From Candidatus Oxydemutatoraceae bacterium (GTDB lineage Bacteria; Pseudomonadota; Gammaproteobacteria; Poriferisulfidales; Oxydemutatoraceae): 64,000 bases of DNA. Position 1 is the stretch's first letter. Each line of letters begins with the position of its first letter. The stretch covers positions 782,979 through 846,978 of the forward strand of contig CBDCOZ010000003.1 in the NCBI GenBank assembly GCA_965220085.1, in the 5' to 3' direction. This document shows positions 1-53,056 of this stretch, in pieces. The position numbers and the translations under genes are program-made. The notes beneath the pieces are model-generated. The model made no database searches, was not told where the DNA came from, and worked only from the letters and a program-made list of their open reading frames with translations.

Positions 1-2164
1 GGGACAGACGGCGGCAACGGTGAGTGTCGAAGTGCGCGGGCGCAAAGCGCCTTCGGCGGCCGCAGCAGCCGCCAAGCGAGCCAAGGCCGACAAACCGCGA
101 GTGAAAAAGAAACCGACATCGGCGACCGCCGGGTCGCCGCCGGCAAAGACTCCGGCAACCTCCAAGCCCAAGAAGAAAGCGGCGGCGAATAAAAAGCCCG
201 ATTCGTCGGCGCAGAAAAAAGCGCCCCAAGACGCTTCAAAGAAGGAAGCGAAGCCGTCTGATACGGCAAAGAAGCCGGTCGAGCGCAGACAACTGCGGAT
301 TGACGGCGCCAAGCGCAACAAGCGCAAGCCGAAGGAGCGTACGTTTGCTCCGCCGAAGCAGGTCAAGGTGGAAGGCACTCAGAAGCATGCGTTTGAAAAA
401 CCGACCGAGCCTGTCAAGCGCGCTGTGATGGTGCCGGAGAAGATTACGGTGGCCAATCTTGCGCAACGCATGGCGATCAAAAGCGGCGAGTTGGTAAAAC
501 TTTTGATGGACATGAATATGTTGGTCACGATTAATCAGGTGCTCGATCAGGATACCGCGATATTGGTCGTCGAGGAGTTGGGACATATTGCCAAGCCGGA
601 GAAGAGAGACGACACCGAAAAAGAATTGGCGAAGAAGATGGAAATGGAACCGGGGGTATTAAAAATCCGTCCTCCGGTCGTTGTCGTCATGGGGCATGTG
701 GATCACGGCAAGACCTCGCTGTTGGATTACATTCGCTCCACTCAGGTGACGGCCGGCGAAGCGGGCGGCATCACGCAGCACATCGGCGCGTATCATGTGG
801 AGACCGACCACGGCATGATCACGTTTTTGGATACTCCCGGGCACGAAGCGTTTACCGCGATGCGCGCGCGCGGCACCGGCCTGACCGACATCGTGGTGCT
901 GGTCGTTGCCGCCGACGATGGCATCATGCCGCAGACCATCGAAGCGATCGAACACGCCAAAGCCGCCGATGTGCCCATCATCGTCGCGCTGAACAAGATT
1001 GACAAAGAAGGCAGCGATGTTGAGAAAGTGAAGGGCGAACTCGCAAAGCACGGCTTGATTCCGGAGGATTGGGGCGGCGGCAATATGATGCTCGGAATCT
1101 CGGCCAAGACCGGGGAGAATGTGGACCATTTGCTGGAGGCGATCTCGCTGCAAGCCGAGATCATGGAGCTGAAGGCGAGCGAAGAGGGCGCGGCGGTGGC
1201 GACGGTCGTCGAGTCTTCCCGCGACAAAGGGCGCGGCGTGATGGTGACGGTGCTCGTCCATCGCGGCACTTTGAACAAGGGCGATATTTTGCTGGCCGGC
1301 GCGGAGTATGGCCGGGTGCGCGCGATGATAGACGAGCGCGGCAATGATTTGCAACGGGTCGGCCCGTCCCTTCCCGCCGTCGTATTCGGTCTGTCGGGGA
1401 CGCCGGATGTGGGCGAGGAAGCGGTGGTCGTCGATGGCGAGCGCCGGGCGCGCAGTGTCGCCGAGCAACGGCGCGAAAAACAACGCGCGATCCGGTTGTC
1501 GGTGACGCCCGCGCACGGCGAAGAGTTGTTCGGTATTTCGGCGCAGGACAAAAAGGAGTTGCGCATCTTAATCAGGTCCGATGTTCGCGGCACGGCCGAG
1601 GCGTTGCGCGATTCGCTTGAGAAAATCGTGAGCGATGAGGTCAAGGCGAATATCCTGTCCAATCTGGTCGGCGGGATTACCGTATCCGATATCAATCTGG
1701 CGGCGGCTTCGCGGGCGATGGTAATCGGTTTTAACGCGCGGGCGGATGCTCCCGCGCGCAAAGCCGCCGAAGCGCAGGGGGTGACGATTCGCTATTACGG
1801 GATTATTTATGAGTTGATAGACGACGTAAGGAAGATGATGAGCGATATGTTATCGCCCGAGGTCAAAGAGGAGATCGTCGGTCTGGCGACGGTCAAGGAT
1901 ATTTTCCGTTCGTCGCGTTTCGGCACGGTAGCGGGTTGTCGGGTCGTTGAGGGGATGGTCAGGCGCGGCAACCCGATTCGCGTGTTGCGCGATCAGATCG
2001 TCATCTTTGAAGGCGAACTGGAGTCCTTGCGCAGACATAAGGACGATGCCGCCGAAGTGAACGCGGGGACAGAGTGCGGCATTGCGGTGAAAGACTATAA
2101 CGACGTCAAGGTCGGCGATCAGATAGAAGTGTATGAGAGGATTGAAACGCCTCGTAATCTGTGA
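1..2164 (+). CDS. infB: translation initiation factor IF-2 (5' end probably lies upstream of the window)
   Basis: Lys/Ala/Pro-rich N-terminal region, G-domain motifs GHVDHGKTS and DTPGHEAF, C-terminal [24 protein letters not shown] close to E. coli IF2; followed by rbfA-truB. Confidence 0.95.
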
Positions 2165-2532
2165 TGGCGCTGCCGAATAGGACCGCGCGAGTCGCCAACA
2201 TGATGCGGCAAGAGATGACCATCCTCTTGCAACGCGAAATCCGAGACCCCAGACTGGCCGCCGTCGCCATAACCGATATTGAAGTGAGCGCGGACTTGTC
2301 GTCGGCGCGGGTCTATGTGCATGTCGCGGCGGGCGATGCGCGGGAAGCCTTGCGCGGCTTGGCCGCGGCGCAAGGTTTTTTCCGGAAAAGACTGTGTCAA
2401 TTGTCGCAACTTCGGGTCGTGCCCGAGATGCGCTTCAAGTTGGACGATTCCAAGATCAAGGCGCAACGCATTGAGGAACTGCTCAACGACCCGCGCGACA
2501 AAACGGTTGCGGATGAGGATGCGGCTTCATAA
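2161..2532 (+). CDS. rbfA: ribosome-binding factor A
   Basis: 123 aa; [23 protein letters not shown] RbfA signature; infB-rbfA-truB synteny; start overlaps infB stop (ATGA). Confidence 0.9.
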
Positions 2533-2534
2533 CC

Positions 2535-3407
2535 ATGGACGGTTTGCTGCTGGTTAACAAACCCTCCGGCATCAGTTCCGGCAAAGCGGTGGGCCGGGTG
2601 ATACGCCGTTTGGGCAAGGTCAAGGGCGGTCACAGCGGCACGCTTGACCCGCTTGCCGAAGGTTTGTTAGTCATCGGCTTGGGGTGCGCGACAAGAGCCT
2701 TGGGCCACCTTGCGGCGAAGCCCAAATGTTATCGCGCGACCGCTCGCTTGGGCGTGTCTACCGCCACCGGAGACCTGGAAGGCGCAATCGTGGCGCGGCG
2801 CGATTTTCACATGCCCGATCGGGAATGTTTGGCGTCTTTGTTCGCGGCATTGCAAGGCGAGATGTTGCAAACCGTGCCCGCCTATTCCGCGCTCAAGCAA
2901 GACGGCAAGCGGTTTTATGAGTTGGCGCGCGATGCGCAAGAGACGCCGCACCGGCAGCGGTGGGTGCGCATACATCGGCTGCAATTGCTCGCGGCGGAGA
3001 ACGACCGCATCTCGTTTGATGTCGAGTGCTCCAAGGGGACATATATACGCAGCCTTGCCGAGGACATCGGTCGCTACCTCAATACCGTCGCATGCCTTGC
3101 GCGGTTGCAACGCACCGCGATCGGCGCGTTCGCATTGGAGCAAGCATTGCCGCTTGATGCGATTGAGCAACGCTCGCAAGAGGAGATCGCCGCGGCTGTT
3201 CTGCCTGTGGATCAAGCCTTTTGCGATTTGCCGGCGGCGTATTTGGATGCGACATCGGCGGCTGCGTTTTGTCACGGTCAAACTGTCGCACCGGTCGGCG
3301 CGCCGACCGAGGAGCGGTGCCGAGTGTACGCCGCCGACAAACAGTTTGTGGGCGTTGCAAGCGCGAAGGACGGCCTGCTCAAACCGCTGAAGGTGCTCAA
3401 GCCCTGA
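2535..3407 (+). CDS. truB: tRNA pseudouridine(55) synthase
   Basis: LLVNKPSGISS...HSGTLDPLAEGLLVIGLG catalytic Asp motif; synteny. Confidence 0.9.
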   Translation: MDGLLLVNKPSGISSGKAVGRVIRRLGKVKGGHSGTLDPLAEGLLVIGLGCATRALGHLAAKPKCYRATARLGVSTATGDLEGAIVARRDFHMPDRECLASLFAALQGEMLQTVPAYSALKQDGKRFYELARDAQETPHRQRWVRIHRLQLLAAENDRISFDVECSKGTYIRSLAEDIGRYLNTVACLARLQRTAIGAFALEQALPLDAIEQRSQEEIAAAVLPVDQAFCDLPAAYLDATSAAAFCHGQTVAPVGAPTEERCRVYAADKQFVGVASAKDGLLKPLKVLKP

Positions 3408-3459
3408 TAGCCGCTGTGCGCCGGCAAACCGGACGGCGATAGTGCGAGCAGGTTACGAT

Positions 3460-3720
3460 GCCGTCCGCGCTTTGCGACATGGAAAGACCGTGCGCACGGG
3501 CTCCGATAGGCATCCGGGCTTTGCGACATGGCAAGACCGTGCGAGCGGGCTCCGATAGGCGGCGATAGGCGAGGGTGCCCGGGCTTTGGAACAACCGGAT
3601 TTCGCTAGGGCGATGCCGGCAACTGTTGCAAAATAGCGACACCGTATTTTCGGGCGAGCGGGTTGCGATAGGCGACGAAGGTCGTTGGGGCTTTGCGACA
3701 TGGCAAGAAGCGGGCGGCGA
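3460..3720. repeat. degenerate tandem repeats (~47 bp unit GGGCTTTGCGACATGGCAAGACCGTGCGAGCGGGCTCCGATAGGC, 2 full and 2 partial copies) where rpsO would normally sit
   Basis: direct reading: copies at about 3467, 3514, 3574 (partial) and 3688; units contain the GCGATAGGCG motif that resembles the family gene terminus. Confidence 0.6.
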
Positions 3721-3902
3721 TGCTGTCCTTCTGTGCCGCCATGCCCCCTAATCCGCGCGATAGCGCAAATCTCCGGCGGCGGAGCAGGGGAGTGTTATGG
3801 GGGCCGGCATAGCACACTGCAAGCCCTGTCTTGGCAAGGGTTTCAGGGCAACGCATCCCGCGCATTGCCATAGATACCGTGCAAGCGCCAATGACATATG
3901 AC

Positions 3903-3932
3903 ATTGCCCCACGTGTGCGATATGTCATGGCA
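3903..3932. promoter_or_regulatory. conserved ~30 bp element CATTGCCCCACGTGTGCGATATGTCATGGC with flanking ATGACATAT/ATATGTCAT inverted repeat; second copy at 54727-54757
   Basis: 27/31 identity between the two copies, each just upstream of a sigma70-like promoter. Confidence 0.45.
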
Positions 3933-3944
3933 TCATACATACGC

Positions 3945-3973
3945 TTGCACATGACACGAATTTGTGATATAGT
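3945..3973 (+). promoter_or_regulatory. sigma70-type promoter TTGCAC-17-TATAGT of family gene A
   Basis: same architecture, TTGCAA-16-TATAGT, found at 14973-15000 and 51114-51141 upstream of the paralogous loci. Confidence 0.6.
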
Positions 3974-4064
3974 GCGATACTCGTTGCTTGCTTAAATATA
4001 GGAGATACGGCAGACACTTGTAGATGACTTGCATTTTGCGTTAGAGTACATAGCATTAAACAAT

Positions 4065-4081
4065 CCACAAACAGTTTGTGG
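4065..4081. promoter_or_regulatory. perfect palindrome CCACAAACAGTTTGTGG in the long 5' leader; related CACAAACAA/TTGTTTGTG arms recur in the leaders at 15080-15245 and 51236-51262
   Basis: seen on direct reading; conserved between three leaders. Confidence 0.5.
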
Positions 4082-4172
4082 AGCACAATCGGTATTAAAT
4101 GTTGCTTGTGTGCATATACCGCATAGCTAAATTTATCAAAATTATTAGATACATGATATCAGGAGAGTAACT

Positions 4173-5760
4173 ATGAATTACAAATACTTTGGTATAACTA
4201 CCCCCCCCCCCCCCCCCCCCGCGTTGTCAGGGCAGGATAACCCGGCATAGCCTCTGGCCGCTCACTCTGCTGGCCCTGTTTGCGCTCTGCGCTCAGGCGC
4301 AAGCGCAGAACGCCACTGGCATGCCGGAGGTCACTTACGTCAGCGGCATAACCGTTCCCACTGAGGACTCCGCCATCACCGCATCTCAGGGCACCATAGC
4401 CGACCCGGACAATACGCCCACCACCACGGTCGGCGCCCTCAGCTGGCAGTGGAGCATGGCCGACACCAATGGCGGCACCTACACCGCCATCGCCATGGCG
4501 ACCAATGCCGCATTCACTCCGGGCGATGATGAGGTGGGCAAGTTTCTGCAGGTCTGCGCATCGTTCATGGATATGGCCACCACCCCCAATTCGGAGATGC
4601 GATGCCTGCAGATAGCCACCGCTGTGGCCAATGTCAATGACAAGCCGGTATCCATAAACACCAATCTTGTAGTAAATATAAACGCCGATGCCGACAGCCC
4701 TCATCCGCTTCGGGCATCCGACTTCCCGTTCACCGATGCCGACAAAGATATGCTGGCTGGTGTCATCATACATAGCCTGCCCAGCCACGGTACCATGAGT
4801 CTGGATGGCACAGCCCTGACCAGCGACGATGTTCCCACAGCAACCATAACCGTGGCCAAACTGGACGCTGGTGCCCTGACCTATTACCCGACACCAGCCC
4901 AGCGAATGCCGAGCTTCGCAGCAGTCTCCTTCTTCCAGGCCAGGGTGGTGGATGATGGCAGCGATGGCACCGACAACAAGACCAGCATTGGTGCCAACAT
5001 CCTTATCGTTCTGACATCGCCGGACCAGACTGCCGCCAGTGGTGCCCCCACCATAATCCCGTCCACCACCGCCGACAACCCGACCCACGCCGAGGATGCC
5101 CAGTTGACCGCCAGCAGCGATGGCATCACCGAGCCCAATGGCATAGACCGCACCACCCTGAGGTGGCAATGGCAGTCATCCCCCGCCAGCGATGGCGCTT
5201 TTGCAGCCATAAACGGCGCGACCGGGGTGCTATTCACCCCCCTGCAGGCGCATGTGGGCCAATACATCCGGGTCTGCGTCAGTTTCATGGATTTCCACGC
5301 CATGCCGGAGACTGTGGAGGGCCTGTGTTCCGCCGCCGCCCGGGTGCGCAACGTAAACGATGCGCCCCGGGCGCAAAACCGTACGATAAATGTGTCGGTG
5401 GATGCCACGATGAGCGAGCCTTTCAGGTTCGCCGTCGACGACTTTCCCTTTGCCGATGAGGACGATGACAACTTAGTCAACGTGGAGATTGCCAGCCTGC
5501 CGGGTGCCGGCACCCTGCAAATAAACGGCGCTGACGCCACTGTCGGCGATATCATAGAAGCCGATGACATAGACGACTTGGCGTACTATCCCGCCAGCCA
5601 GAATGCCCAGGCCGGCTACGCCGCCTTCACCTTCAAGGTAACCGACGATGGCAGCGATGGCAGCGGCAACAAAACTTCCGGCGCCGCCACAATCACCATC
5701 AATCTCACGGAGCACTTGCGCCTGCGCTTGCGCCTCTTTCTGGAAGGCCCGTTGCGATAG
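4173..5760 (+). CDS. secreted cadherin-like repeat protein, family member A; poly-C frameshift currently out of frame (ON would need 21 C); ends HLRLRLRLFLEGPLR
   Basis: signal peptide LWPLTLLALFALCAQAQA; two SWQWQ-type ~90 aa repeats; cadherin-like motifs NVNDKPV / NVNDAPRA / DDGSDGTDNKTS; paralogous to the genes at 15291-19725, 51346 and 53099. The track ORF 4321-5760 is the in-frame downstream part. Confidence 0.7.
4201..4220 (+). repeat. homopolymeric poly-C tract (20 C) between the ATG-led mini-ORF and the signal peptide of gene A
   Basis: RBS AGGAGAG, ATG 4173, 9 codons, then C20; signal-peptide frame (open from 4198) is +1 relative to the ATG with 20 C. Confidence 0.85.
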
Positions 5761-14499: not shown

Positions 14500-14567
14500 T
14501 AAGTTGCAACAAAACAGGCAAAGAGAACTCATCTCGCTAAGGTTGATTCTTTTTGGTTGTCTCCTCT

Positions 14568-14768
14568 GGCGGCGCCGAACTTTGGCGCCGCCCTTTTTAA
14601 GCGTCTCCGGCGGCGCCGAACTTTGGCGCCGTCTTTTGGGTTGTCTCTTCTGGTGGCACCGAACTCCGGTGCCGCCTTTTTTGGTTGTCCCCTCCGATGG
14701 CACCCGAACTCCGGTGCCGCCCTTTTTAAGCGTCTCTGGTGGCACCGAACTCCGGTGCTACCTTTTTA
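14568..14768 (+). terminator. array of five tandem REP-like GC-rich hairpins, each followed by a T-run, giving multiple intrinsic terminators
   Basis: GGCGGCGCC-GAACTTT-GGCGCCGCC+CTTTTT at 14568-14597, then four more (two subtypes, GGCGGCGCC and GGTGGCACC stems) near 14608, 14652, 14696 and 14738. Confidence 0.7.
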
Positions 14769-14972: not shown

Positions 14973-15000
14973 TTGCAAATGATCGAATGTATGGTATAGT
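14973..15000 (+). promoter_or_regulatory. sigma70-type promoter TTGCAA-16-TATAGT of the tandem paralog array
   Basis: same architecture as 3945-3973 and 51114-51141. Confidence 0.6.
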
Positions 15001-15290
15001 GCGACACTAAGCGTTATATGTACGCAAACAACTCAAGAAGTCACAAATAAAAATATCATTTGTGCCTCATTAAAAGTTGTTTGTGTACATTAAACAATCC
15101 ACAAACAATGGAGTTGTTTGTGTACATATAACGTATAATTGAATTTTCTAAACATAGGAGATACAAACATTTGCAGATGACTTGCATTTTGTGGCAGGGC
15201 ACACAGCAGTAAACAATCACAAACAACGGAGTTGTTTGTGTGCATATGCCGCACAACTGTATTCGCTAGAAACAGGAAATACGAACCATT

Positions 15291-16183
15291 ATGAATAATT
15301 ACATGAATATAAATATATCTAATACCCCCCCCCCCCCCCCCCCCCCCCCCCGCATTGGCGGACAGCACTAACTCGGCTTAGTCTCCGGTCACTTATCCTG
15401 CCGGCCCTGTCTCTGGCATTGGGCGCAACCCATGTTTGGGCCCAGACGAGCAAGAGTGTTAATGCCCCTGTTGGCGGCGGCACATATTATTTCACCGCCG
15501 CAGATTTCGGATTCTCCTCAGGTGTCATCGTGTTTGAGTCGTTGCCCGCTCGTGGCAACTTCCAGCGATACAGTAACGGAAATCCCGCGGCTATCATTCC
15601 AGGGATTATCGACGACCACCAAGCCACCCATTTCTTTGCCGACGCCTTTGGCGGTGCCGGCTCCGACGACAGGTTGGAGTACAGGACTCCTGCCGATGCT
15701 GTTTCCATCGCCACTGGCTATACCAGCTTTATCTACCAACATTCTGCTGACGGTGGTATCACCCGCACCATGTTCACCATGACCATCAACCTGGCGGGGG
15801 CATCCACGCCGACGGCCGCCAGCGGTGCGCCCACAATTGCCGCCACAGACACGCACCGGATTAGAGCTTCCATCACCGGTGTGACGGACCGCAACGGCAT
15901 TGATGTCGGCACCCTGAGTTGGCAGTGGCAACAGGCCGCCGCACCTGCCAGCGGTGTTCCTGAAACCGATGACTATGACGACATAGAGGATGCTACTTCC
16001 TCCCTCTTCGCACCGACTGCCGCCCAACTGAGCAGGTATGTGCGCACCTGCGTTTCTTTCAAGGATCAGTCTCCCACGCCCGCATCGGAAGGGCCGCTGT
16101 GTAGCGCCGGCCTTCGGGTGACAGAGTTGCCGTCTGAGATACGCTTGCGGTTGCGCCTCTTCCTGGAGGGCCCCCTGCGATGA
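15291..16183 (+). CDS. family member C1 (first gene of the five-gene array); poly-C currently out of frame
   Basis: track ORF 15419-16183 plus the upstream frame open from 15323; ends ELPSEIRLRLRLFLEGPLR. Confidence 0.7.
15325..15351 (+). repeat. poly-C tract (27 C) between the mini-ORF (ATG 15291) and the signal peptide of array gene 1
   Basis: the ATG frame hits a stop at 15369 with 27 C; 26 or 29 C would fuse it to PHWRTALTRLSLRSLILPAL. Confidence 0.85.
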
Positions 16184-17064
16184 TGCGAGTACTCCGCCCC
16201 TTCCCGCATTGGCGGACAGCACTAACTCGGCTTAGTCTCCGGTCACTTATCCTGCCGGCGCTGTGTCTGGCATTGGGCGCAACTTATGTTTGGGCCCAGG
16301 CGACAGATCAGAGCATTGATGTCCCGATAGGCGGCAACGCCTATACCATCACGGCTGCCGACTTTGGCTTTGATGATATCACTGCCGGAAGCGCCCTTAC
16401 GATCATGACGGTCGGGTCTTTGCCTGCTCTCGGCAACTTACAGCGATACACAGGTGGGAATCCTGCGAATCTGCGTTTGGCTTCTGACCCAAATGCAAGT
16501 ACTTTCTTTGAAACAGGTCTTGGCGGTCTTGACGGCGCCGGCTCCGACGACAGGTTGGATTATACGCCTCCTGCCGATGCTGTTTCCGTTGCCGCCGGCT
16601 ATGCCAGCTTTGCCTTTCATATTTCCACCGATGCTATTACCGATACGATGGCCACCATGACCATCAACCTGGTGGGGGCATCCACGCCGACGACCGCCAC
16701 CGGTGCGCCCACAATCTTCGCCACGGACACGCACCAAATCAGAGCTTCCATCACCGGTGTGACGGACCTCAACGGCATTGATGTCGGCACCCTGAGTTGG
16801 CAGTGGCAACAGGCCGATGCCCCCGTCAGTGGCGTTCCCGAAACCGGTGATTACATCGACATAAAGGATGCTACTTCTTCCTCCCTCTTCGCACCGACTG
16901 CCGCCCAACTGAGCAGGTATGTGCGCACCTGCGTTTCTTTCAAGGATCAGTCTCCCACGCCCGCATCGGAAGGGCCGCTGTGTAGCATCGGCATTCTGGT
17001 GACAGAGTTGCCGTCTGAGATACGCCTGCGGTTGCGCCTCTTCCTGGAGGGCCCCCTGCGATGA
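16180..17064 (+). CDS. family member C2 (own signal peptide MMRVLRPFPHWRTALTRLSLRSLILPALCLALGATYVWAQA)
   Basis: ATGA start/stop overlap with C1; GGAGGG in the conserved terminal codons acts as its SD; conserved C-terminal half. Confidence 0.8.
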   Translation: MMRVLRPFPHWRTALTRLSLRSLILPALCLALGATYVWAQATDQSIDVPIGGNAYTITAADFGFDDITAGSALTIMTVGSLPALGNLQRYTGGNPANLRLASDPNASTFFETGLGGLDGAGSDDRLDYTPPADAVSVAAGYASFAFHISTDAITDTMATMTINLVGASTPTTATGAPTIFATDTHQIRASITGVTDLNGIDVGTLSWQWQQADAPVSGVPETGDYIDIKDATSSSLFAPTAAQLSRYVRTCVSFKDQSPTPASEGPLCSIGILVTELPSEIRLRLRLFLEGPLR

Positions 17065-17960
17065 TGCGAGTATTCTGCCCCTTCCCGCATTGGTGGGCGA
17101 TACTAACTCGGCTTAGTCTCCGGTCACTTATCCTGCCGGCGCTGTGTCTGGCATTGGGCGCAACTTATGTTTGGGCCCAGGCGACAGATCAGAGCATTGA
17201 TGTCCCGATAGGCGGCAGCGCCTATACAATCACGGCTGCCGACTTTGGCTTTGATGATATTATCAATACTGGAGCCTCCGATACGATTATGACGGTCGGG
17301 TCTTTGCCTGCTCTCGGCAACTTACGGCGATACACCCGTGGGCGGGTTGTAACTTTACGTGTGGGGAGCCTGACAGATGGCGACACGAGTGTAAGTGCTT
17401 TCTTTGAGACAGGCTTTAACGGTCTTGATGGCGCCGGCTCCGACAACAGGTTGGATTATACGCCTCCTGCCGATGCCGTTTCCGTTGCCGCCGGCTATGC
17501 CAGCTTTGCCTTTTATATTTCCACTGATGGCAGTACCGATACGATGGCCACCATGACCATCAACCTGGTGGGAGCATCCATGCCGACGACCGCCACCGGC
17601 GCGCCCGAAATCGCCGCCACAGACACGCACCGAATCAGAGCTTCCATCACCGGTGTGACGGACCTCAACGGCATTGATGTCGGCACCCTGAGTTGGCAGT
17701 GGCAACAGGCCGATGCGCCCGTCAGCGGTGTTCCCGACACCGGTGATTACATCGACATAAAGGATGCTACTTCTTCCTCCCTCTTCGCACCGACTGCCGC
17801 CCAACTGAGCAGGTATGTGCGCGCCTGCGTTTCTTTCAAGGATCAGTCTCCCACGCCCGCATCGGAAGGGCCGCTGTGTAGCATCGGCATTCTGGTGACA
17901 GAGTTGCCGTCTGAGATACGCCTGCGGTTGCGCCTCTTCCTGGAGGGCCCCCTGCGATGA
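17061..17960 (+). CDS. family member C3
   Basis: same as C2; variable N-terminal half, near-identical C-terminal half. Confidence 0.8.
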   Translation: MMRVFCPFPHWWAILTRLSLRSLILPALCLALGATYVWAQATDQSIDVPIGGSAYTITAADFGFDDIINTGASDTIMTVGSLPALGNLRRYTRGRVVTLRVGSLTDGDTSVSAFFETGFNGLDGAGSDNRLDYTPPADAVSVAAGYASFAFYISTDGSTDTMATMTINLVGASMPTTATGAPEIAATDTHRIRASITGVTDLNGIDVGTLSWQWQQADAPVSGVPDTGDYIDIKDATSSSLFAPTAAQLSRYVRACVSFKDQSPTPASEGPLCSIGILVTELPSEIRLRLRLFLEGPLR

Positions 17961-18838
17961 TGCGAGTATTCCGCCCCTTCCCGCATTGGTGGGCGATACT
18001 AACCCGGCTTAGTCTCCGGTCACTTATTCTGCCGGCGCTGTGTCTGGCATTGGGCGTAACCTGGGCGCAGGCTCAAACTGCCCAGGACCGCAGTGTTGAT
18101 ATCCCCATAGACAGCGATGGTCATCCGTTGCGACTTGCCGATTTCGGGCCTACCTCATCTGCCTCAGGTATAGTTATAATCAAGATCAAGTCGCTACCCG
18201 CTCGTGGCAGCTTACAGCGATACAGTAGTGGAATTCCTGTGCTGCTCGTTGTTGGGGATTTTATCCACGGCAACACAAGCTTTTTCACTTTCTCAACCCT
18301 TGGCGGTGCCGACGCCGATGACAGGTTGGAGTACAGGCCTCCCGCCAATGCTGGTTCCCCCGCCACTGGCTACGACAGCTTTGTCTTCCATTATTCTGTT
18401 GACAGTGGTTTCACGGCCACCACGGCCACCATGACCATCAACCTGGTGGGGGCATCCATGCCGACGACCGCCACCGGCGCACCCACAATCGCCGCCACAG
18501 ACACGCACCGAATCAGAGCTTCCATCACCGGTGTGACGGACCTCAACGGCATTGATGTCGGCACCCTGAGTTGGCAGTGGCAACAGGCCGATGCCCCCGT
18601 CAGCGGTGTTCCCGACACCGGTGATTACATCGACATAAAGGATGCTACTTCTTCCTCCCTCTTCGCACCGACTGCCGCCCAACTGAGCAGGTATGTGCGC
18701 GCCTGCGTTTCTTTCAAGGATCAGTCTCCCACGCCCGCATCGGAAGGGCCGCTGTGTAGCATCGGCATTCTGGTGACAGAGTTGCCGTCTGAGATACGCC
18801 TGCGGTTGCGCCTCTTCCTGGAGGGCCCCCTGCGATGA
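17957..18838 (+). CDS. family member C4
   Basis: same as C2. Confidence 0.8.
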   Translation: MMRVFRPFPHWWAILTRLSLRSLILPALCLALGVTWAQAQTAQDRSVDIPIDSDGHPLRLADFGPTSSASGIVIIKIKSLPARGSLQRYSSGIPVLLVVGDFIHGNTSFFTFSTLGGADADDRLEYRPPANAGSPATGYDSFVFHYSVDSGFTATTATMTINLVGASMPTTATGAPTIAATDTHRIRASITGVTDLNGIDVGTLSWQWQQADAPVSGVPDTGDYIDIKDATSSSLFAPTAAQLSRYVRACVSFKDQSPTPASEGPLCSIGILVTELPSEIRLRLRLFLEGPLR

Positions 18839-50984: not shown

Positions 50985-51030
50985 CGCCGCCCGCCGCCCC
51001 TGCGTCTGCGCCTTTTCCTTCAAGATCCTT
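50985..51030 (+). pseudogene. orphan remnant of a family-gene 3' end (..RRRPPPLRLRLFLQDP..)
   Basis: degenerate copy of the LRLRLRLFLEGPLR terminus, followed by a leader homologous to 3745-4172. Confidence 0.55.
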
Positions 51031-51113
51031 GCAATAATGCGGGTATCCTGCGGCAGAGAAAGGGAGTATTATGGGGCGCAAACAAGGGGAGCGAGGCAGG
51101 ATACGGAGGCGCT

Positions 51114-51141
51114 TGCAAATGACTTGCTTTGTGGTATAGTG
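51114..51141 (+). promoter_or_regulatory. sigma70-type promoter TTGCAA-16-TATAGT of family gene B
   Basis: near-identical to the 14973-15000 promoter. Confidence 0.6.
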
Positions 51142-51345
51142 CGCCAAAGGAGGGAAACAATGAGCAATTTAACTCTTGCAAATAACTTGCGCCTTGTGGC
51201 AGAGTACAGCACTCAGAGTACGGCACTAAACAGCACACAAGCAGCACTCAGTTGTTTGTGGTTTCTTGAGCGTTGCTTGTGTGCATATACTGTGCAACTG
51301 CATTTGCTAGAAACAGGAAATACATGCCATAAGGAGTAATAGATT

Positions 51346-52612
51346 ATGAATAGACAAGACTTTAATACTACCCCCCCCCCCCCCCCCCCCCCGCGCTATG
51401 TAAAGGTAAGGGGACTGCGGTCGCTTGGCTGTATTGCCTCGCCACCCGCTTTCTGCAAGTACTTCGCCCCTCCGCATTGGCGGGCAACGATGATGCGGCT
51501 TAGCCTCTGGTCGCTGGCCCTGTTCGTCCTGTTCGCCGTCTGCGCTCAGGCGCAGGCGCAAAATGCCACCGGCATACCCGATGTCACCTACGCCAGCGGC
51601 ATAATCGCTCCCACCGAAGATTCCGCCATCACCGCCAACGGCGGCAGCGGTTCCACCGCCATAGCCGACACCGATGGCCTGGGCACTTTCAGTTGGCAAT
51701 GGAGTGCGGCCGATACCAACGGCGGCGCCTACGCCGACATCGCCATGGCGACCAATGCCGCCTTTACTCCGGGCGATGACGAGGTGGGCAAGTTCCTGCG
51801 CGTCTGCGCATCTTTCACGGATAACGCCGGCAACAACGAGGAGCGTTGCCTGCGGATAGCCACCGCCGTGGCCAACATCAACGACAAGCCGGTGCCTATC
51901 GCCAACACAATTTCGGTGAGCACCGCCGCCGATGCCGACAATCCCTATGTCTTCTCTGCGGATGACTTTCCATTCACGGATGTGGACGGCGACATGCTGG
52001 CGGGCATCGAAATAGCCGCCCTGCCAGGAAGAGATTCTACAGCCGGGCCAGGCAGTCCGGGCACCCTGGCATTGAACGGAACGGCCTTGACCGCTGTCCC
52101 CGCAAGCACCATCACCGTAGCCCAACTGGAGGCCGGCGCTCTGACCTATTACCCGCCAGAGGGCGAGCAACCCACCAACCCCAATGACCCCATTGCCAGA
52201 TTAGCCTTCTTCGGCTTTGATGTGGTGGACGATGGCAGTGATGGCAACACCAACAATGTCAGCAATGTGGGCAGAATCATAGACATACGACTGGTGTCGG
52301 TGAGTCAGACTGCCGCCAGCGGCAGACCCAGAATAGCAGTGCTGAATGTTCCCGCCAATATCCACACCCACGCTGAGGGCACCCAACTGAGAGCCGACAC
52401 CGGAGACATCGTCGAACCCAACGGCATAGACCGCAGCACTCTGGAGTGGCAATGGCAGTCATTCTCTGTCGGCGATGGTGTCTTTGCCGACATAAGCGGC
52501 GCCACCGGAGGCGCATTCACCCCGGGCCAGGCCCATGTGGGCATGCGCATCCGCGTCTGCGCCAGTTTTATGGACAATCACGCTATGCCGGAGACTGTGG
52601 AAGACCTGTGCT
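51346..52612 (+). pseudogene. family member B; family homology stops at ~52612, and the frame then runs on into unrelated sequence
   Basis: identical to gene A up to ...HAMPETVE(G/D)LCSA; after that the track ORF 51346-53094 becomes R/H/P/Q-rich nonsense, while the +1 frame encodes an OMP-like C-terminus. Confidence 0.5.
51371..51392 (+). repeat. poly-C tract (22 C), here in frame: MNRQDFNTT-P7-...-MMRLSLWSLALFVLFAVCAQAQA
   Basis: ATG 51346 with RBS AAGGAG; the open frame continues through the tract. Confidence 0.85.
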
Positions 52613-53056
52613 CCGCCTCTATCCGGCAACAGCAGCACCCTGGCGGCCGCCGATGCCTCCATCAACGAGATATCCATAGATGCCCAACTGCGCTATACCA
52701 AAGACAATCTGATGCCCTTTGCCAGCATAACCGCCCGCAAACTTGGTGGCGACCTCAGCCAATCCTTGGCGATGGATCTCAGATTCGGCGCAGACCTGCA
52801 GACCAAACCCGCCACCATCCGCCTGTCCATAATCCGCCAGATAAACGACACCACCCACAAACGCGACAGCCTGAGTCTGGACATAGCCACCAGGCCCAAC
52901 CGCAGCGGCATAACCGCCAGCCTCGGCAGCCGCTACGACAGCATAACGGGCCGCCCACAGTGGCACAGCCGCCTGGGCTGGCAATACCGAAACTTCCAGA
53001 GCTCCCTGCAGGCATCGCCAGACGACTGGCGACTGCAAGCCCGGGTGCGCTGGTAA
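52535..53056 (+). CDS. C-terminal fragment of an outer-membrane beta-barrel protein (beta-signal ...DWRLQARVRW), +1 out of frame with gene B
   Basis: alternating hydrophobic pattern with a terminal aromatic; no start or signal peptide of its own. Confidence 0.45.
   Translation: MWACASASAPVLWTITLCRRLWKTCAPPLSGNSSTLAAADASINEISIDAQLRYTKDNLMPFASITARKLGGDLSQSLAMDLRFGADLQTKPATIRLSIIRQINDTTHKRDSLSLDIATRPNRSGITASLGSRYDSITGRPQWHSRLGWQYRNFQSSLQASPDDWRLQARVRW

Follow-up and report, generated by a model that had tools for sequence, protein, structure and literature searches.

Poly-C tracts in conserved leaders as candidate translational switches of a large adhesin-like protein family in a Candidatus Oxydemutatoraceae bacterium

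The window analysed here, a stretch of 64,000 nucleotides (nt) from Candidatus Oxydemutatoraceae bacterium (assembly GCA_965220085.1, contig CBDCOZ010000003.1, positions 782,979 to 846,978 of the forward strand), carries three loci of one family of secreted proteins, gene A, the array of genes C1 to C5 and gene B, at each of which a start codon and a short leader are followed by a long run of C within the coding sequence. The first-pass annotation of this DNA had given the positions and lengths of the runs exactly (C20, C27 and C22 in A, C1 and B, respectively). Tract lengths, and the ON and OFF states derived from them, are the consensus of one assembly. When C12 was searched on both strands of the window, only these three places were found, and no C run of at least 12 occurred in 100 dinucleotide-preserving shuffles. 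Besides the three tracts the window contains no C or G run of at least 8, and a single G7 is the only further one of at least 7, at a G+C content of 50-63%. Since such runs are absent elsewhere and from the shuffles, and since the housekeeping genes of the window (infB, rbfA, truB, aroA, rpsA, dxs and clpB) are intact, the tracts are a specific feature of the three loci and not a property of the assembly. All three exceed the length (about 8 or more for G/C homopolymers) from which a repeat is regarded as hypermutable in contingency loci.

The tract starts 25-34 nt past the ATG, that is, 8-11 codons into the frame, and occupies the same codon of a homologous leader at A, C1 and B. The codons before the tract had been described in the first-pass annotation as unrelated, forming a mini-open reading frame (ORF) without conservation; this was contradicted by the shared leader DNA ATGAAT...AATAC(T)ACC (repeat family D17 and alignment) and by the paralogs, in which the leader is a conserved peptide, M-N/K-R-Q-x-F-N-T-A/T-P. 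Paralogs were collected by protein searches with gene A and then with C-type and D-type members, and all of them lie on the 2,046,636-bp source contig. At least 65 were found in this 2.05-Mb source genome, covering at least 85 kb or at least 4.2% of it, together with a few further relatives on a 230-kb contig and on metagenome contigs. In 12 paralogs the annotated protein runs from the leader through in-frame P4-P7 at the same Pro into the signal peptide. Another 10 have the leader with a single Pro (NTAP) and no tract, reading M-N/K-R-Q-x-F-N-T-A/T-P-x-W-R-A-T-L-T-R-L-S-L-W and then the hydrophobic core and AQAQAQ, and 9 have the 'internal' leader MMRVLRPFPHWR, typical of genes within tandem arrays. 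About 14 are annotated as N-terminally truncated, starting inside or beyond the signal peptide, among them gene A (P0001) and C1 (P0207), which are annotated in this way because their tracts are out of frame. Some tracts are interrupted (PPSPPPPPP, PPPPPPSP, PPPPPTP). From 0 to about 27 C are thus carried at the same codon, a variation between the genes of one genome and not between isolates.

Because the leader is conserved across paralogs both with and without poly-Pro, the tract can be read from these alignments as a Pro codon expanded within sequence that extends the signal peptide at its N-terminus, and the upstream ATG as the genuine start. The conserved leader strengthens the reading of the tract as a translational switch, for a reason other than the one first put forward. 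By extrapolation, about two dozen loci in the source genome may carry tracts, and many 'truncated' genes of the family are probably intact genes that are out of frame. The features of the three loci and of gene D, a copy for comparison, are listed in the table.

Table. Coordinates of the tracts, genes, leaders, predicted promoters and tag copies in the window
Feature	Position	Strand	Remarks
Gene A promoter, predicted sigma-70-like	3946-3973	+	TGCACA-16-TG-n-TATAGT; homologous sites at C1 and B
Gene A conserved 5' untranslated region (UTR) module	4016-4172	+	From three-way upstream alignment; repeat family D15/D18; stem-loop 4064-4082; Shine-Dalgarno (SD) AGGAG 4161-4165
Gene A start and leader codons	4173-4200	+	MNYKYFGIT-T; native family N-terminus
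Poly-C tract, gene A	4201-4220	+	C20, uninterrupted; out of frame
Gene A body	4221-5760	+	Rest of signal peptide (RCQGRITRHSLWPLTLLALFALCAQAQA/Q), four cadherin/Ig-like beta-sandwich domains, C-terminal tag LRLRLRLFLEGPLR at 5716-5757
C1-C5 array promoter, predicted	14973-15000	+	TTGCAA-16-TG-n-TATAGT
C1 start and leader codons	15291-15324	+	MNNYMNINISN-T; second in-frame ATG 15303; SD weakened
Poly-C tract, gene C1	15325-15351	+	C27, uninterrupted; out of frame
C1 body	15352-16183	+	HWRTALTRLSLRS signal peptide, two domains, C-terminal tag
C2-C5, four paralogs of C1	16180-19725	+	Each ATG overlaps the previous stop (ATGA); no own promoter module, no intergenic space
Gene B promoter, predicted	51113-51140	+	TTGCAA-16-TG-n-TATAGT
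Gene B start and leader codons	51346-51370	+	MNRQDFNT-T
Poly-C tract, gene B	51371-51392	+	C22, uninterrupted; in frame with downstream ORF
Extra segment between tract and signal peptide, about 100 nt	51393-51489	+	B-type loci only; related to N-terminal extensions of P0202/P0064/P0212
Internal ATG ATG (MMRLSLW...)	51490-51495	+	Would start a normal-length signal peptide irrespective of the tract
Autotransporter beta-domain remnant, out of frame	52625-53056	+	71% identical to P0220 residues 881-1034 (last about 143 residues); fused to B passenger
Gene D, tract-less comparison copy	53099-54457	+	Same SD/ATG leader MIMNITAFFSNPATSG...; only CCC at tract position
C-terminal tag copies	5716-5757, 16139-16180, 17020-17061, 17916-17957, 18794-18835, 19681-19722, 54413-54454		

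Each tract lies far from the predicted start of transcription. A common sigma-70-like promoter, TTGCA(A/C)-16-TG-n-TATAGT, was recognized at A, C1 and B (pairwise identity 70-76%), and its predicted -10 element is separated from the tract by about 230-350 nt at all three. A homopolymer switch in a promoter spacer was rejected because the tract comes after the start codon, with the common promoter far upstream; from their placement the tracts would be coding elements, not promoter spacers. The claim of a strong ribosome-binding site at all three loci stood for A (AGGAG, 7 nt before the ATG) and for B (AAGGAG at 51331-51336, 9 nt before the ATG) and failed for C1, in which the SD is mutated at the corresponding site and a weaker AGGAA is left 12 nt upstream of the ATG. 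The 5' UTR, a stretch of about 200 nt behind the promoter, is conserved at the three loci and contains a stem-loop, CACAAACA...TGTTTGTG, with copies at 4064-4082, 15100-15122, 15218-15240 and 51236-51260, the module upstream of C1 being present in duplicate. No Rfam match was obtained for the conserved 5' UTR, and no known RNA elements or tRNAs were found near the three loci.

For the determination of the reading frames, each locus was rebuilt in silico with tracts from four C shorter to four C longer than in the assembly and translated from the leader ATG. Both A and C1 are OFF as assembled, in agreement with the first-pass annotation: at 20 C the frame of ATG 4173 runs through the tract and ends after 25 amino acids (aa) at TAG 4248-4250, and at 27 C that of ATG 15291 ends after 26 aa at TAA 15369-15371. 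The lengths predicted there to restore them had to be corrected. Gene A is full-length at 16, 19 and 22 C (528 aa at 19 C and 529 aa at 22 C), and the 21 C proposed earlier gives a 22-aa peptide; C1 is full-length at 25, 28 and 31 C (296 aa at 25 C and 297 aa at 28 C) and OFF at the 26 and 29 C proposed earlier. The full frame of gene B is open at 19, 22 and 25 C; at the assembled 22 C, ATG 51346 remains open through the tract into MMRLSLW and as far as 53094.

Apart from the tract, A and C1 are undamaged. Their frame-restored ORFs are complete, contain no further lesion and both end in the 14-residue C-terminal tag LRLRLRLFLEGPLR. The frame of the body is closed by a stop directly 5' of the tract (TAA 4195-4197 in A, TAA 15320-15322 in C1), in gene A no ATG, GTG or TTG separates the tract from the hydrophobic core, and the first candidate alternative start in C1 is TTG 15419, which lies past most of the hydrophobic core and is too late. 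No other usable start having been found, and ATA ACC standing, as correctly noted before, where gene B reads ATG ATG, the claim that A is translatable only through the tract was borne out. Both alternative frames of A and C1 are closed no more than ten codons past the tract by stops that sit inside the codons for L-T-R-L-S (CTA ACT CGG CTT AGT; in B, A TGA TG and CT TAG). A change of one unit would accordingly alter expression, as expected of a contingency locus: full-length products arise at only every third simulated length, and A and C1 have no alternative start. On the same test of placement gene B is in frame at its tract, yet has an internal ATG-ATG. Since neither A nor C1 is in frame, and both lack other damage as well as an alternative start codon, the reconstructed frames indicate that the tract gates both genes.

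Within the array, which extends over 15291-19725, only C1 has a promoter, a leader and a poly-C tract. The N-terminal halves of C1-C5 are 61-91% identical in nucleotides and the C-terminal halves 93-95% identical. The codons for LEGP (CTGGAGGGCCCC) in the array also supply GGAGG 10 nt before the next ATG. C2-C5 are probably gated together with C1 through translational coupling and polarity, by which one tract may gate five variant proteins.

Taken together, we consider it fairly likely that the poly-C tracts are heritable and reversible slipped-strand translational ON/OFF switches of A and of C1-C5 and belong to a genome-wide set. Each gene would be transcribed from the common promoter 230-350 nt upstream of the tract, and ribosomes would initiate at the conserved SD and ATG, translate the 8-11 leader codons and next decode the tract as successive CCC (Pro) triplets. 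At a right length modulo 3 (19 or 22 C in A, 25 or 28 C in C1, 19, 22 or 25 C in B), translation would continue into the signal peptide (HWR-x-TLTRLSLW, hydrophobic core, AQA/Q) and the passenger; at a wrong length it would end 3-9 codons past the tract at the stops of the other two frames, with the exception of one OFF frame of B, which would stay open for 36 codons until a TAG shortly behind the internal ATG-ATG. Slippage during replication would frequently add or remove about one base of the run and flip each locus independently, and a premature stop in C1 would also silence its four ATGA-coupled paralogs, initiation at C2 being reduced and the untranslated RNA being open to polarity. The slipped-strand switch of the first-pass annotation is thus retained on the coding position of the tracts, on the intactness of A and C1 without another start and on the 12 poly-Pro paralogs, and its argument from non-conservation, the ON lengths of A and C1 and the state of B are given up; that lengths change, and that the changes are inherited, we infer from this layout.

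Several points weigh against this conclusion. A run of 20-27 nt is far above the 8-14 nt typical of proven switches; with the instability at such lengths, stable ON and OFF lineages may not exist, and slippage of RNA polymerase or of the ribosome on the run could blur the states. Stretches of 6-9 consecutive prolines are intrinsically slow to translate. Although gene B keeps its frame at the tract, it is damaged further on and has a start codon of its own inside the gene. Exact-protein look-ups with TruB, P0001, P0002, P0017 and gene D led to a single further sequence of the strain, a short-read contig from run ERR14375724, which is 100% identical to window positions 845-4083 and ends in the repeated 5' UTR hairpin, 118 nt short of the tract of gene A. 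A 17-nt word of the 5' UTR gave 107 matches in metagenomes, all of them chance matches of 21-27 nt. Homologs on two low-coverage metagenome contigs (L002 and L083) and on a further short-read contig (L084) have an ordinary signal peptide, or the leader without a tract, and are uninformative on length variation since they carry no tract.

Homopolymers of 20-27 nt are, moreover, hard to size and beyond reliable calling on any platform, and the ON and OFF states are those of the assembly consensus only. It is a serious possibility, if somewhat short of an even one, that 20, 27 and 22 C reflect a population of mixed lengths and/or deviate by one or two bases from the true count, so that the different states of the three loci would be uninformative. 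The break of the ERR14375724 contig before the tract is consistent with such a difficulty. The G11 of the Bifidobacterium breve reference proved to be a mixture of G11 and G12, and synthetic C11/G11 controls were 3-6% heterogeneous (PMC9187656). Set against this are the intact housekeeping genes of the window, which indicate a generally accurate assembly; unreliable states are also compatible with switching by slippage, which itself predicts a mixed population.

Gene B is best read from its sequence as a recombinant and defective copy. The claim that B is ON holds at the tract, where the frame passes through poly-Pro into MMRLSLW, and fails further on: tract and signal peptide are set apart by about 100 extra nt, the internal ATG-ATG is present, and the body is frameshifted and diverges from its paralogs near 52,626, ending without the C-terminal tag of the family. 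The conserved reading of the extra segment falls in another frame in B. Degenerate remnants of a family 3' end or gene junction (...LRLRLF.../ATGATGCG-like) were observed at 50985-51030 and 51393-51489. Because such remnants flank the promoter of B and sit between its tract and its signal peptide, the arrangement suggests that a cassette of promoter, leader and tract was recombined into an existing array.

At B-type loci the internal ATG-ATG at 51490 might instead be the true start, with the leader ATG and the tract forming an upstream ORF (uORF) whose frame would determine the reach of the ribosomes, so that the tract would modulate expression and not gate it, a reading which we regard as doubtful. 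The internal start would give a normal 24-residue signal peptide, MMRLSLWSLALFVLFAVCAQAQA, and at 20 or 23 C the upstream frame, which carries a peptide conserved in P0202 (KGxAVAWLYxLAxRFLxVLR), has its stop, a TAG, 10 nt behind the internal ATG-ATG, a placement that would permit re-initiation. The internal ATG has no good SD, however, the annotation of P0202 is a single ORF that spans leader, tract and segment without a break, and B is defective downstream in any case.

A non-heritable throttle, in which realignment of RNA polymerase and/or slippage of tRNA-Pro on CCC-C scrambles the frame in every cell, appears distinctly unlikely. Each locus would then be expressed at a low level, roughly independent of length, and the length of the DNA would not set the phenotype of the cell. 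The tracts are longer than the RNA-DNA hybrid and consist of CCC codons throughout, and the intactness of A and C1 in spite of their frames would equally fit continued expression through slippage. Productive transcriptional slippage is documented mainly on A/T runs, which counts against it, and the in-frame copies in the genome span P4-P7, which fits a change of length in the DNA. Slippage on homopolymers during transcription and its use in expression are documented (PMC1088944 and PMC5009743), the analysis in PMC1088944 dealing with A and T runs. Such slippage would add to slippage of DNA and is no substitute for it.

It is likewise distinctly unlikely that the family is degenerating, with tracts that grew from a Pro codon by neutral, runaway expansion and knock genes out without selected switching, since, in spite of the frameshifted chimera with half an autotransporter barrel in gene B, the family 3'-end remnants upstream of its promoter and inside its leader, the interrupted tracts and the many paralogs annotated as truncated, A and C1 have no lesion besides the tract, each of the three tracts is a pure run of 20-27 nt at the same codon with stops in both alternative frames behind it, 12 tract-bearing copies are in frame, and the C-terminal tag is kept through synonymous changes, which argues for purifying selection on the proteins.

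The slipped-strand switch was then compared with known systems. In Neisseria, CTCTT repeats lie in the leader-peptide coding region of opa, and pilC has poly-G in its signal-peptide region. As in opa, the repeat here is inside the signal-peptide coding sequence of a multigene family; the opa family consists of surface proteins, each copy having its own switch so that expression is combinatorial, as is proposed here. The proteins are unrelated, and the repeat of opa is a pentamer, in 11-12 gene copies encoding eight-stranded beta-barrel outer-membrane proteins, in contrast to a C homopolymer in a family of at least 65 with strings of soluble beta-sandwiches, and the resemblance to the Opa type is one of logic only. 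The poly-C of Bordetella fim and the poly-C/G of Neisseria opc and porA are located in or beside the promoter and alter transcription. They represent a C or G run in control of a surface protein, as is proposed here, whereas the tracts here are 3' of the ATG and about 230-350 nt past the predicted -10. In Helicobacter pylori, CT repeats lie at the 5' end of the outer-membrane protein genes oipA, sabA and hopZ. These and the poly-G/C genes of Campylobacter and Neisseria (PMC5084427, for N. meningitidis) share with the present loci the 5' repeats and, as predicted here, a frame-dependent expression of surface molecules. Their repeats are typically 8-17 nt long and belong to other protein families in experimentally studied, host-restricted pathogens.

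The closest arrangements were found in two other organisms. In the sortase-pilus operons of B. breve, for which heterogeneity in the length of an intragenic G tract was measured experimentally, a G/C homopolymer stands between the Sec signal and the remainder of the first gene in a surface-structure operon, a layout resembling the one here, and the length of the tract decides whether translation continues, as is proposed here (PMC9187656). These operons are the documented parallel for a single tract constraining the downstream genes of an operon, as would apply in C1-C5. The tracts of B. breve are 11-12 nt at two loci, versus 20-27 nt in a family of at least 65, and they were measured for LPXTG pilins of a Gram-positive actinobacterium, whereas the present system is known from sequence alone in a gammaproteobacterium. 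Length variation has also been demonstrated experimentally for the poly-C of Gardnerella nanH3, which lies about 100 nt into the ORF and, like the tracts here, adjoins a signal peptide; most lengths lead to truncated peptides of 37-44 aa and every third one to the full-length protein, the same logic as in A and C1 (bioRxiv 10.1101/2020.09.16.300947). The nanH3 tract has 8-14 C and follows the signal peptide of a single sialidase gene, whereas the tracts here precede the hydrophobic core in a multigene adhesin-like family. The present system is set apart from these by a tract length of 20-27, by a position in an N-terminal extension where 6-9 prolines would be encoded, by the size of the family and by the protein family itself. 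The principle of switching is textbook, and no new mechanism is involved.

The type of protein was assessed from domain searches and a structural model. The family genes of the window encode a Sec-type signal peptide with AQA/Q, and the searches of Pfam and NCBIfam gave only sub-threshold matches (cadherin-like, Big and ZirU) for the family. The AlphaFold model of A (mean predicted local distance difference test score, pLDDT, 86.7) has four beta-sandwich domains and a C-terminal tail of low confidence, and a Foldseek search with it returned cadherin ectodomains and a Marinomonas ice-binding adhesin at low template modelling (TM) scores, which are expected because of the beads-on-a-string architecture. 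The family profile matches 18,571 representative proteins, many of them giant multi-repeat proteins, and only the close members extend to the C-terminal tag; giant repeat proteins with these domain types number in the thousands. An exported adhesin-like protein is a reasonable reading of this model, and with the Sec-type signal peptide and the cadherin/Ig-like fold the product would probably be exposed at the surface, as is usual for a contingency locus although not strictly part of its definition. A lipoprotein was rejected, as the residues before the Cys (F-A-L-C and F-V-V-C) are unfit for a lipobox.

The C-terminal tag LRLRLRLFLEGPLR, in the general form (L/I)RLRLRLFLEGPLR, stands directly before the stop in seven genes of the window and in 59 of the 65 family proteins of the source genome. 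Its copies differ by synonymous changes (repeat family D8), so that the peptide is the conserved unit. The motif was found in none of 185,579 species genomes and not in the metagenomes of JGI, and the confidence of AlphaFold for it is low; a role as a new signal for sorting or anchoring is possible. Type Va autotransporters are related to the family: relatives from metagenomes share the passenger domains and the long N-terminal extensions of the signal peptide and carry PF03797, which is present in P0217, P0220 and P0011. No match to PF03797 was obtained in A, C1, C2, B or D, and these are not assigned to type Va autotransporters; A, C1-C5 and D have no beta-domain and end in the tag, which is absent from the autotransporter relatives. 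The beta-domain remnant joined to the B passenger suggests, for the family, an origin from classical autotransporters by loss of the barrel.

The lineage is isolated: no close relative turned up in the collections searched (among them the GTDB representatives and the JGI metagenomes), its ClpB is at most 66% identical to those of assorted Gammaproteobacteria and forms a 90% identity cluster of one member, and the family is very large and lineage-specific. If the tracts switch, an uncultured gammaproteobacterium with a small genome spends at least 4% of it on an independently switched adhesin-like repertoire, which would imply strong fluctuating selection on the surface from a host, phages or grazers. 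Runs of 20-27 C (6-9 prolines) would provide a natural test of how far a slippage switch can be extended before transcriptional and translational infidelity erases its ON and OFF states. The main value of the system lies in the scale of the repertoire, the extreme length of the tracts and the uncharacterised C-terminal tag. A broader proposal, which is speculative and unlikely, is that a lone deep-branching lineage has turned autotransporter passengers into a new surface-protein system. Such a system could comprise at least 65 paralogs on at least 4% of the genome, with the barrel lost and the unique tag LRLRLRLFLEGPLR serving as a new sorting or anchoring signal. About two dozen copies could be randomised by long coding poly-C through slippage of DNA, slippage of RNA polymerase and slippage or stalling of the ribosome on poly-Pro, and the cassette of promoter, leader and tract may move between paralogs by recombination, possibly stimulated by the G run of the opposite strand.

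Long tandem repeats are unusually frequent in the window. Upstream of gene A, a 49-bp unit is present twice at 3464-3560. Between a ComEA-like gene and the C1 promoter, five tandem GC-rich hairpins with T-runs (terminator-like, about 41-43 bp) occupy 14549-14767. A 56-bp unit repeated 4.2 times follows the stop of C5 directly at 19718-19951, beginning within the last codons of that gene; a similar element (...CCCCTCGTGGGAGAGTCGG...CATAGCGCG) is present at 80-150 of the short-read contig L084, upstream of a family gene, and from its sequence the 56-bp repeat looks like a lineage-specific element of the repetitive extragenic palindromic (REP) type. A near-perfect 182-bp repeat in three copies (55330-55874) starts inside the 3' end of a thioredoxin-like ORF (54819-55394), and a near-perfect tandem repeat of 156 bp in 5.9 copies is located at 58511-59434.

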